DNA from: an uncultured Anaerolineae bacterium | Lineage (GTDB): Bacteria > Chloroflexota > Anaerolineae > JAYEMR01 | NCBI GenBank assembly: GCA_964425465.1 | Contig: CAYRNM010000004.1 | Span: 1-32,005, forward strand | DNA: 32,005 nt | Direction: 5' to 3' | Part shown: positions 9,927 to 16,162 of the stretch, in pieces | Position numbering within the stretch: position 1 is the first letter of the stretch | How the letters are laid out: every line of letters starts with the position of its first letter | The notes under the pieces: model-generated | What the model was told of the DNA's origin: nothing | Seen by the model: the letters and a program-made list of their open reading frames with translations, nothing else | The model's database searches: none | Translations under genes and position numbers: made by a program

Positions 9927-10667
9927 TCAATAGAGAATCTTGCTCAGGAAGAGTCTAGTGCGCTCGTGTTGGGGATTGGTGAAAAGTTGTTCTGGTGTCG
10001 TCTCCTCGATGATCTGCCCCTCGTCAATGAAGACCAGGCGCTTGGCAGCGGCTTTCACGAACCCCATCTCGTGGGATACCACCAGCATCGTCATCCCTTC
10101 GCTGGCCAGCTCCAGCATGACGTCTAGCACCTCTTTGATCATCTCCGGGTCCAGGGCTGAGGTGGGCTCGTCGAACATCATGATCTTGGGCTGCATGGCC
10201 AGGGCGCGGGCGATAGCCACCCGCTGTTGCTGTCCCCCAGACAGTTGACCGGGATAGGCGTGGGCTTTCTCGGGGATGCCCACCTTGGTCAATTGCTCCA
10301 TGGCCATGGCCTCGGCCTCTTCTTTCGAGCGCTTGCGCACCACCCGTTGGGCCAGGACGACATTCTCCAGCGCGGTCAGGTGGGGGAAGAGGTTGAACAG
10401 TTGGAAGACCATGCCCACCTCAGCGCGCACCTTGTTGATGTCGGTCCTGGGATCGGTCACCGGGAAGCCATCCACGATGACCGTGCCCGAGTCCGGGGTC
10501 TCCAACCGGTTGATGCAGCGCAAGAGAGTGGACTTGCCAGAGCCGCTGGGGCCGATGATGACCACGACTTCGGCTGGATAGACATCCAAGCTGACACCAC
10601 GCACCGCATGGATGTGGTCGAAGCGTTTGTGAAGGTCCCGGATCTGAATCATGGGCTCATTCGGCAA
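9927..10667 (-). CDS. polar amino-acid ABC transporter ATP-binding protein (GlnQ/HisP/ArtP type)
   Basis: Walker A GPSGSGKST, LRCINRLETPDSG, signature LSGGQQQRVAIARAL, Walker B MMFDEPTSALD, and C-terminus FTNPQHERTRLFLSKIL. The TTG start at 10667 has AGGAG 8 nt upstream. An alternative ATG lies at 10652. Confidence 0.92.
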   Translation of the reverse strand: MPNEPMIQIRDLHKRFDHIHAVRGVSLDVYPAEVVVIIGPSGSGKSTLLRCINRLETPDSGTVIVDGFPVTDPRTDINKVRAEVGMVFQLFNLFPHLTALENVVLAQRVVRKRSKEEAEAMAMEQLTKVGIPEKAHAYPGQLSGGQQQRVAIARALAMQPKIMMFDEPTSALDPEMIKEVLDVMLELASEGMTMLVVSHEMGFVKAAAKRLVFIDEGQIIEETTPEQLFTNPQHERTRLFLSKILY

Positions 10668-11445
10668 TTTTCATTCTCCTTTCCAGCACTCGGCTCAACG
10701 AGGAAAGGGCCAGGGTCATGATCAGGTACAGCAGGGCCACGGTGTTATACCCCTCGAAGGCGCGAAAGGTCCGTGAGATATACAGGCGGCCCATCTGCAA
10801 CAGGTCGGGCAGGGCGATAACCGCGATCAGCGAGGAGTCCTTAAGCAAGGCAGATAGGTCGTTGACTAGAGGGGGCAGGATGACCCGAAAGGCCTGGGGC
10901 AGGATGATGTAGCGCATGGACTGAAAGTAGGTCATGCCCAGGGAGCGGGCGGCCTCCATCTGCCCCCGGTGGATAGACTGGATGCCAGCCCGGTAGACCT
11001 CGGTCAGATAGGCCCCATAGCCGAACCCCAGCCCCATGATGGCCCGTTGAAGCAGGGGCGGATCGAAGGCCCCGCCGGTGGCGTCACGAACCCAGGGGCC
11101 GATGACGAAGCCGACGTACAGGATGATGACCAGCATGGGGAGGCCACGGATGACCTCGACGTAGAGGGTAGCGATAGCGTACAGGATGGGATTCTTGGAA
11201 ACGCGCCCCAGGCCCCCCATCAGGCCCAGCACCAGGGCCAGGGCGAAGGCCAACACGGTGGTCTGCAACGTCAGCTTGACCCCCTCCATAACGAAGCGGA
11301 TGACTTTGAGATAGGCCTCAGAGTTCAACACCGAGTAACCGACGAAGATGCCGAGGACGGCGATGATGACCGCCCACCAGGGAACGCGTCCCCAAGGGAT
11401 AAGCAAGGCCACGCTTCTCCTTGACTTTCCGACTTCAGAGTTCAT
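10657..11445 (-). CDS. polar amino-acid ABC transporter permease (HisM/GlnP family)
   Basis: YVEVIRGLPMLVIILY and EAARSLGMTYFQSMRYIILPQAFRVILPPLVN (EAA loop) are present. ATG 11445 (GGAGGGG 9 nt upstream) is preferred over ATG 11463. Confidence 0.9.
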   Translation of the reverse strand: MNSEVGKSRRSVALLIPWGRVPWWAVIIAVLGIFVGYSVLNSEAYLKVIRFVMEGVKLTLQTTVLAFALALVLGLMGGLGRVSKNPILYAIATLYVEVIRGLPMLVIILYVGFVIGPWVRDATGGAFDPPLLQRAIMGLGFGYGAYLTEVYRAGIQSIHRGQMEAARSLGMTYFQSMRYIILPQAFRVILPPLVNDLSALLKDSSLIAVIALPDLLQMGRLYISRTFRAFEGYNTVALLYLIMTLALSSLSRVLERRMKIAE

Positions 11446-16046: not shown

Positions 16047-16162
16047 GTCTCCTCCTCTCGAATGCAGGTCTTGAAACACGGATGGACAGGACAGGAAAAC
16101 GGTCTCTCTTCGGCATCACCTCCCTTCGCAGAGAACTCATCACACGCCAGTCCAAAAGCAAG

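Follow-up and report, generated by a model that had tools for sequence, protein, structure and literature searches.

The locus described here raises the question of how a pair of peptide permeases is powered when the only ATPase gene of its operon is of an amino-acid-importer type. We analysed a 32-kb stretch (the window) of a contig from an uncultured Anaerolineae bacterium (Chloroflexota), and its genes were inventoried by open reading frame (ORF) and Pfam searches. Five closely packed, co-oriented genes occupy positions 9927-16079 of the minus strand and encode a receptor, a DppB-type permease, a DppC-type permease, a HisM/GlnP-type permease and a GlnQ-type ATPase (Table 1). Their coordinates and Pfam assignments match exactly the gene order given in an initial annotation of this DNA, which had also remarked on the lack of a DppD/DppF-type ATPase. 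Pfam and homology searches bore this out: no DppD/F-type ATPase with the oligo_HPY extension is encoded in the 32-kb window, where the remaining ABC ATPases are LivG and LivF only (16390-17891, plus strand). The annotation had allowed for a DppDF pair in the same operon just outside the window, and none is adjacent to the operon.

We favour the reading that two conventional type I ABC importers are joined at the level of the receptor. One lipid-anchored, flexibly tethered receptor would carry two binding heads, of which the family-3 head would deliver to a HisM-type homodimer driven by a GlnQ dimer, in the architecture of Art(QN)2, while the other, a circularly permuted DppA-like head, would dock canonically on the DppB-DppC heterodimer. 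The ATPases of DppBC would come from elsewhere in the genome, most likely as a DppD/DppF-type pair shared among several cassettes, which would parallel the way in which MsmX/MsiK serves several sugar importers; shared (multitask) ATPases are established for type I importers by MsmX/MsiK of the sugar importers (PMC7658222). That two ordinary translocators share the tethered receptor, and that DppBC is powered by trans-encoded DppD/F-type ATPases, is in our judgement probable, if by no wide measure. From the comparisons of sequence and predicted structure given below we infer which head pairs with which translocator, that the HisM-type permease acts as a homodimer, and what the DppBC ATPase is and where it is encoded. 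By its sequence signatures, each half can be assigned to a known family (the Dpp type and the PAAT type, respectively), and no new transport mechanism is required.

The evidence that carries this reading is comparative. A scan of species-representative genomes gave 80 loci (best match to the window 71-87% identity), which were annotated by our own ORF calling and phmmer thresholds with the window proteins and the DppD and DppF of locus L001 as references. A receptor with a family-3 (SBP3) head and a permuted family-5 (SBP5) head was followed by DppB-DppC-HisM-GlnQ, with no DppDF, in 18 loci including the window (receptor identity 38-80%), and GlnQ was the last gene in all 18. The same kind of receptor preceded DppB-DppC-DppD-DppF-HisM-GlnQ in three loci (L001, L035 and L069), with DppD-DppF exactly between DppC and HisM, and it preceded DppB-DppC-HisM without GlnQ in two (L002 and L033) and DppB-DppC only in one (L019); L169 likewise had no GlnQ. 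The SBP3 head had a HisM gene downstream in 23 of 24 loci, as compared with none of the 28 loci without this head (Fisher p = 7e-14, uncorrected for phylogeny). Cassettes with an SBP3-less receptor, which were counted only when at least 2.2 kb of sequence followed DppC (n=28), had no nearby ABC ATPase gene in 18 cases, DppDF nearby in nine, and a GlnQ-type gene directly after DppC in a single case (L086). ATPase-less DppBC cassettes are therefore the majority state in this clade (18/28 of the SBP3-less cassettes), and because they dominate, these organisms must routinely provide ATPases in trans. In L006, a close relative of the window cassette (SBP5 part 88% identical, DppB and DppC scoring highest against those of the window) stands behind a LivJ-type head and has no HisM, GlnQ or other ATPase. 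The partner to be expected for these permeases is of the DppDF type, and a trans-encoded DppD/F-type pair is favoured because DppDF is the partner wherever one is encoded next to DppC, except in L086. Borrowing of ATPases encoded elsewhere was one of three explanations put forward in the initial annotation, and it is the one that best fits these data, i.e. the 18/28 ATPase-less cassettes, the presence of DppDF in L001, L035 and L069, and the inheritance of GlnQ with HisM.

Comparison of the permease-ATPase interfaces gave no signature. The EAA loops (coupling helices) of DppB and DppC did not differ between loci with DppDF, loci with HisM and GlnQ only, and loci with no ATPase, and the Q-loop of GlnQ held no feature separating loci that have DppDF from loci that do not, so this comparison neither proves nor excludes sharing of GlnQ. 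Since DppDF-bearing and DppDF-less clades are interleaved in the tree of DppB and DppC, and the interfaces are uniform, DppDF is an evolutionarily labile feature to which the permease interface has not been adjusted.

The histories of the genes also separate two modules. Pairwise distances across 17 complete loci correlated with a rho of 0.68-0.85 among the SBP5 head, DppB and DppC and of 0.78 between the SBP3 head and HisM, as compared with ~0.3 between the modules. The window itself is a mosaic, with the SBP3 head, HisM and GlnQ 90, 82 and 88% identical to those of L007 and the SBP5 head, DppB and DppC 90, 84 and 82% identical to those of L008. Within the receptor, identity switches at the linker around residues 303-316 (15132-15173, minus strand), from 90-97% (to L007) before it to 80-100% (to L008) after it. 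We read this as a recombination breakpoint between the modules at the disordered interdomain linker, that is, as domain-level cassette exchange inside a gene, and because of this mosaic the SBP5 head, DppB and DppC behave as an exchangeable cassette nested between the parts of the amino-acid module. The two modules had different nearest relatives in seven loci, and GlnQ tracked the amino-acid module in all of them (six matches were exact, and the one for L008 was to a member of the same small group), indicating that HisM, the SBP3 head and GlnQ are inherited together and that GlnQ does not travel with DppBC. Both modules are also found apart, the permuted SBP5-DppBC set on its own and HisM-GlnQ without DppBC in L041 and L049.

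Several observations weigh against a trans-encoded DppDF pair. No DppDF acting in trans came to light in the gene search, which covered the 32-kb window, and ATPase sharing has been documented mainly in sugar importers, not in the peptide family. Other points bear on the alternative, also raised in the initial annotation, that one GlnQ dimer energises both the HisM homodimer and the DppB-DppC heterodimer, so that the five genes would make up a self-sufficient dual importer; we regard this as unlikely, though deserving of more than passing weight. Its only direct support comes from L086 (204-5037), where a GlnQ-type ATPase gene lies ~10 nt behind a stand-alone permuted SBP5 gene, DppB and DppC, the SBP3 head and HisM both being absent; it is the sole such locus among ~160 examined. 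This locus, however, is a single 6.8-kb contig of a co-assembled metagenome-assembled genome, its GlnQ resembles the L028/L049 type and its DppC resembles that of L025; moreover, all five genes are present in its nearest relatives, L088 and L089 (82-85% identical), and no second DppB-DppC-GlnQ case was among the 80 further loci returned by a metagenome scan that started from the L086 DppC. L170, with two Dpp cassettes and HisM, has a single GlnQ and no DppDF, the five-gene set is strictly conserved in 18 loci, and each of the three permeases has an EAA loop that agrees with the generic motif. NikDE and CntDF, which serve the peptide family, are short ATPases without a C-terminal extension according to their profile lengths, and so the missing extension on GlnQ is no barrier in principle. 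GlnQ and DppBC distances remained correlated after controlling for HisM (partial rho 0.47, which may reflect shared phylogeny); the two partial Mantel values, 0.38 for GlnQ against HisM and this 0.47 against DppBC, were both significant and did not tell the alternatives apart, and nearest-neighbour concordance is the more informative measure. Against a GlnQ that serves both translocators stand its presence with HisM and its absence otherwise, its inheritance with HisM and the SBP3 head, the close relative of the cassette without GlnQ in the L006 operon, and a GlnQ sequence that carries no signature of the presence of DppDF. We consider it doubtful that a single GlnQ homodimer is the motor of both DppBC and (HisM)2, with one tethered multi-headed receptor and a pairing that crosses families; if GlnQ does serve both, the five genes would amount to a full machine for the uptake of two substrates, and ATPases would pair with permeases across family boundaries.

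The other explanations fare worse than a trans-encoded DppD/F-type pair. DppBC could be energised in trans by an ATPase of another family, e.g. the adjacent LivG/LivF or an unrelated multitask ATPase, for which we see a slim chance: synteny of Liv genes and the receptor extends from the window to at least 11 relatives, and L157 has the order LivHMGF-permuted SBP5-DppB-DppC with no DppDF, but many ATPase-less DppBC cassettes have no Liv genes nearby and LivGF belong to a different importer class. Liv-class permeases (BPD_transp_2) lack an EAA-type coupling helix, and we know of no precedent for LivGF powering DppBC. The absence of cognate ATPase genes, on the other hand, is the sole support for the notion that the DppBC half is a decaying or non-transporting remnant, such as a docking platform or a sensor, that needs no ATPase. 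To this we give very little credence, given that DppB and DppC are full-length, that EAA loops, scoop loops and ligand-binding residues are kept in dozens of lineages at 50-85% identity, and that the cassette has been repeatedly exchanged as an intact unit. The initial annotation had further suggested that the three permeases form one unprecedented assembly on the two-headed receptor, an idea for which the single operon and the fused receptor are the sole support. Every type I importer of solved structure contains two permease domains and no more, the modules occur separately, recombine independently and have different evolutionary histories, and the DppDF-bearing relatives have a full ATPase set for each half, so that we set this idea aside as highly improbable. 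It would be still more surprising if the arrangement, including the mosaic receptor, were an assembly chimera. The identity switch inside the receptor gene does resemble a junction, but the reading frame is unbroken, the breakpoint falls on a structural linker, and an independent contig (ERZ27245470 k141_648779) matches the window over 19 kb at 99.97% identity and in its gene order. The architecture is, in addition, common to 17 other loci, and the arrangement is therefore neither unique to this assembly nor an assembly junction, which answers both the doubt voiced in the initial annotation and its question about conservation in relatives.

The receptor contains an SBP_bac_3 domain at residues 85-302 (1.5e-44) and an SBP_bac_5 domain (1.8e-104) that Pfam reported in two stretches; residues are numbered on the 815-aa ORF. 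Its real start is probably ATG 16046 rather than GTG 16079, since the strong ribosome-binding site GGAGGAG precedes the former, and the database protein (P0001) has 803 aa. The lipobox cysteine (LLTAC) is invariant in an alignment of 19 sequences (A1) and is followed by a disordered, E/K/V/P-rich tether at residues 36-80, with a pLDDT <50 at residues 32-78 in the AlphaFold2 model. This model, built from 55 homologues, has a mean pLDDT of 88, with both heads and also the second segment of head 2 above 90, and disorder is limited to the tether and the short linker at 305-311. The best Foldseek matches of the model were DppA (1DPP; 8Z1Z_F, TM-score 0.71 on target, ~385 columns) and, for the other head, ArgBP/AncQR. 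Among solved structures, T. maritima ArgBP 6SVF (1.2e-57) and AncQR, an ancestral Gln/Arg binder, come closest to head 1 (family 3, cluster F). T151, R156, T199, T200 and D237 are invariant in 55 homologues, and we take T151, R156, T199/T200 and D237 to be ligand contacts from general knowledge of the HisJ/LAO family; the ligand of head 1 would be a polar amino acid, probably a basic one.

Head 2 has DppA_dipep as its best NCBIfam match and is, when compared with DppA, circularly permuted. HMMER aligned residues 317-683 to residues 124-497 of DppA/HbpA and residues 698-805 to residues 22-117 (6.8e-14 to HbpA for the second stretch), and this permutation accounts for the two SBP_bac_5 stretches in Pfam. 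The permuted order was also found in homologues down to 33% identity, and our search found no solved structure that matches the permuted order in a single stretch. R383 and D436 of E. coli DppA bind the dipeptide at its carboxyl and its amino group, respectively (PMC12136057), and they align with R545 and D598 of the receptor, both of which are invariant in a second alignment (A2). Dipeptides or similar zwitterions are proposed as the ligand of head 2, as it is DppA-like. In E. coli DppB, E41 and R42 of the scoop loop contact the dipeptide-binding residues of DppA (PMC12136057), and the G-E-[KRH] motif of this loop is kept in 62 or 63 of 63 relatives. Since the ligand-binding and scoop-loop residues are conserved, both heads look functional.

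The translocator genes fit the same division. The DppB-type permease scored 9e-100 with NCBIfam DppB, which groups it with DppB/NikB, and its best solved structure is E. coli DppB (8Z1V_A, 2.2e-90); its coupling helix reads DYIRTARAKG. The HisM-type permease carries the N-terminal three-transmembrane signature (TIGR01726 HEQRo_perm_3TM, 67.1 bits vs a cutoff of 42.2), its best NCBIfam matches are GlnP, cystine permease and EhuC/D, and its best solved structure is the Art(QN)2 permease (4YMS_D, 1e-36). Because there is one permease gene and one ATPase gene, a homodimeric permease with a homodimeric ATPase is the presumable arrangement, the HisM-type protein acting with a GlnQ dimer. The ATPase scored 331.7 bits (2.2e-99) with NCBIfam GlnQ, which is under the equivalog cutoff of 379, and is for that reason treated as a member of the family and not as a named orthologue; Pfam found no oligo_HPY domain or C-terminal extension on it. 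The permeases carry no binding domains according to Pfam, the receptor being a separate lipoprotein. The initial annotation had called the amino-acid half complete, and the features of the PAAT family (transporter classification, TC, 3.A.1.3) are indeed present: a family-3 receptor head, a HisM/GlnP permease and a GlnQ/HisP-type ATPase of ~240-260 aa. The peptide half shows the Dpp/Opp (TC 3.A.1.5) features of a cluster C receptor with peptide-site residues and of DppB together with DppC; the two DppD/DppF-clade ATPases that are otherwise encoded with such a system, as a rule with the oligo_HPY extension at the C-terminus, were not found in the 32-kb window.

We compared the operon with well-described importers. 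It shares with E. coli DppABCDF (8Z1V-8Z1Z; PMC12136057) the DppB and DppC homologues, the DppA fold with its Arg/Asp pair, the scoop-loop E-[KRH] and the RTA coupling helix, and differs from it in lacking DppD and DppF. Unlike E. coli DppA, the binding domain of the window is permuted (124-497 before 22-117), lipid-anchored and fused behind a family-3 domain. With Art(QN)2 of Thermoanaerobacter tengcongensis (4YMS) it has in common one HisM/GlnP permease gene, one GlnQ/HisP ATPase of ~245 aa and an arginine-binder-like family-3 receptor. In contrast to Art(QN)2 and other single-permease PAAT importers, this receptor forms the N-terminal head of a lipoprotein with two heads, and its gene is set apart from the HisM permease gene by those of another, unrelated translocator. 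Like GlnPQ of Lactococcus lactis and OpuA, the system has more than one binding domain per polypeptide, flexibly linked near the translocator. The binding domains of GlnPQ are of the same family, sit on the permease polypeptide and serve a single translocator, whereas those of the window belong to clusters F and C (clusters B and D also occur in relatives), are joined to one another, lipid-anchored and predicted to feed different translocators. The sugar importers that depend on MsmX/MsiK (PMC7658222) resemble the peptide half in that their operons lack an ATPase gene, the dependence on a trans-acting ATPase being predicted for DppBC; the known cases, however, are of the carbohydrate family with MalK-type ATPases, and sharing within the peptide family or between amino-acid and peptide families is not documented.

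The searchable literature held no match for fusions of heterologous binding proteins, for permuted binding proteins or for ATPases shared within the peptide family, in line with the initial annotation, which was aware of no described system of this composition. Within that literature, three features appear to be undescribed: a lipoprotein that unites binding domains of different clusters, a DppA fold that is circularly permuted in nature, and an exchangeable peptide cassette without ATPase genes. To our knowledge a permuted DppA-like domain is in none of the known structural classifications of binding proteins. Beyond what the annotation had noted, the present analysis revealed that the SBP5 head is circularly permuted and that receptors with several heads form a wider family. 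Receptors of the unrelated clusters F, C, B and D, joined in a single lipid-anchored chain and often with the matching translocator genes adjacent, offer a natural experiment in receptor tethering, stoichiometry and competition that extends the single-family case of GlnPQ. The permutation shifts the tether point from lobe I to the accessory domain and could guide the engineering of biosensors, a field that uses artificial permutations of binding proteins. The majority of ATPase-less cassettes implies ATPase sharing in the peptide family, which has so far been documented mainly for sugar importers. Chloroflexota are abundant in sediments, sludge and hot springs, and genome-based inventories that require a full operon would undercount or mis-score peptide uptake in this phylum.

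Table 1. Features of the window discussed in the text. Coordinates are positions in the window; residues refer to the 815-aa receptor ORF.
Feature	Coordinates	Strand	Size or residues	Basis or remark
MR_MLE (enolase-superfamily) gene and class-V aminotransferase gene	7418..9824	-		Directly downstream of GlnQ; gaps 102 and 22 nt
GlnQ-type ATPase	9927..10667	-	246 aa	Pfam ABC_tran; 11-nt overlap with end of HisM gene
HisM/GlnP-type polar-amino-acid permease, single gene	10657..11463	-	268 aa	Pfam BPD_transp_1
DppC-type permease	11487..12431	-	314 aa	Pfam OppC_N + BPD_transp_1; NCBIfam GsiD, DppC, NikC class
DppB-type permease	12473..13552	-	359 aa	Pfam BPD_transp_1_N + BPD_transp_1
Two-headed lipoprotein receptor gene	13632..16079	-	815 aa	ORF from GTG 16079
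Receptor head 2, segment 2	13635..13988	-	698-815	~ DppA N-terminal residues 22-117; second HMMER stretch
Receptor head 2, segment 1	14010..15131	-	317-690	~ DppA mature residues 124-497; carries R545, D598
Receptor interdomain linker	15132..15173	-	303-316	pLDDT <50 at 305-311
Receptor head 1, family-3 (cluster F) amino-acid-binding domain	15174..15833	-	83-302	Pfam SBP_bac_3
Predicted lipid-anchor site (lipobox cysteine, LLTAC)	15975..15977	-	Cys35	Sequence
GC-rich hairpin, then U-rich tract	16163..16189	-	12 bp	Within ~190-nt leader of receptor gene
Sigma-70-type promoter candidate, TTGACA-16 nt-TATAAT	16242..16269	-		12/12 consensus matches; upstream of receptor gene
LivG-LivF-LivH-LivM branched-chain amino-acid importer genes	16390..19768	+		Divergent from receptor gene

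A candidate promoter lies upstream of the receptor gene, the consensus scan having found three sites vs 2.1 expected. The hairpin in the leader may be an attenuator or an uncharacterised leader RNA; an Rfam search of the whole window, leader hairpin included, gave no matches at the gathering score. Downstream of GlnQ, the MR_MLE and aminotransferase genes are possibly co-transcribed with the operon, and a sequence scan found no terminator-like site between GlnQ and MR_MLE. The same pair is present in L007, 2 kb downstream of GlnQ. Neither gene reached an NCBIfam equivalog (the best partial matches were glucarate dehydratase and pyridoxamine-pyruvate transaminase), and hence these genes give no clue to the substrate. 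A second 815-aa ORF (22716-25163, minus strand) was considered as a relative of the receptor and rejected, as it encodes a glycosyltransferase of the PMT_2 family and the identical length is a coincidence.

The LivGFHM genes are part of a recurrent three-transporter neighbourhood, as LivJHMGF lie directly upstream of the receptor and on the same strand in L011, L013-L016, L024, L028, L032, L049 and L069. No LivJ-type receptor gene was found after LivGFHM in the window (19769-21600), and the LivJ head of this system may be part of a different multi-headed receptor encoded outside the window. P0007, a LivJ-permuted SBP5 fusion that is 88% identical to the SBP5 head of the window, is a candidate for the type of such a receptor. 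In L171, LivHMGF is followed by a LivJ+SBP3+SBP5 receptor, and there is no separate LivJ.

The receptor belongs to a large family, with 1239 homologues at E<=1e-10, nearly all of them in Chloroflexota metagenome bins. Permuted and non-permuted SBP3+SBP5 fusions both occur among these homologues, as do LivJ-type+SBP3+SBP5, LivJ-type+SBP5, SBP_bac_8+SBP3+SBP5, Peripla_BP_4+SBP5 and doubled heads; wherever a multi-headed receptor has an SBP5 head, this head is always C-terminal. Examples include SBP_bac_8+SBP3+SBP5 in L035 (8498-12331), Peripla_BP_4+SBP5 in L170 (3742-6432), two SBP3 heads with LivJ in L041 and two LivJ heads with SBP5 in L050. In many of the 80 loci the permuted SBP5 domain makes up a whole lipoprotein of 550-600 aa by itself. 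Hosts of this stand-alone form include an isolate of Bellilinea caldifistulae and bins assigned to Anaerolinea, Caldilinea, Thermoflexus and Ardenticatena, and also some bins assigned to Acidimicrobiia and cyanobacteria.

Some relatives carry further additions. The HisM-type permeases of the DppDF-containing loci L035 (16670-18862) and L069 (16823-19009) have an N-terminal WD40 beta-propeller of ~400 aa, for a total of ~730 aa, and we know of no described ABC permease with a WD40 domain. A redoxin/AhpC-TSA gene lies between DppC and a HisM-type gene of ~450 aa in L002 (14794-15312) and L169 (13775-14293); the long HisM-type gene is followed in both by an MFS transporter and by no ATPase, the receptor being permuted in L002 and non-permuted in L169. 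Three receptors, P0060 (989 aa), P0069 and P0082, have an N-terminal haem-binding/cytochrome c module (Dehyd-heme_bind, Cytochrome_CBB3) before the SBP3 and permuted SBP5 heads.

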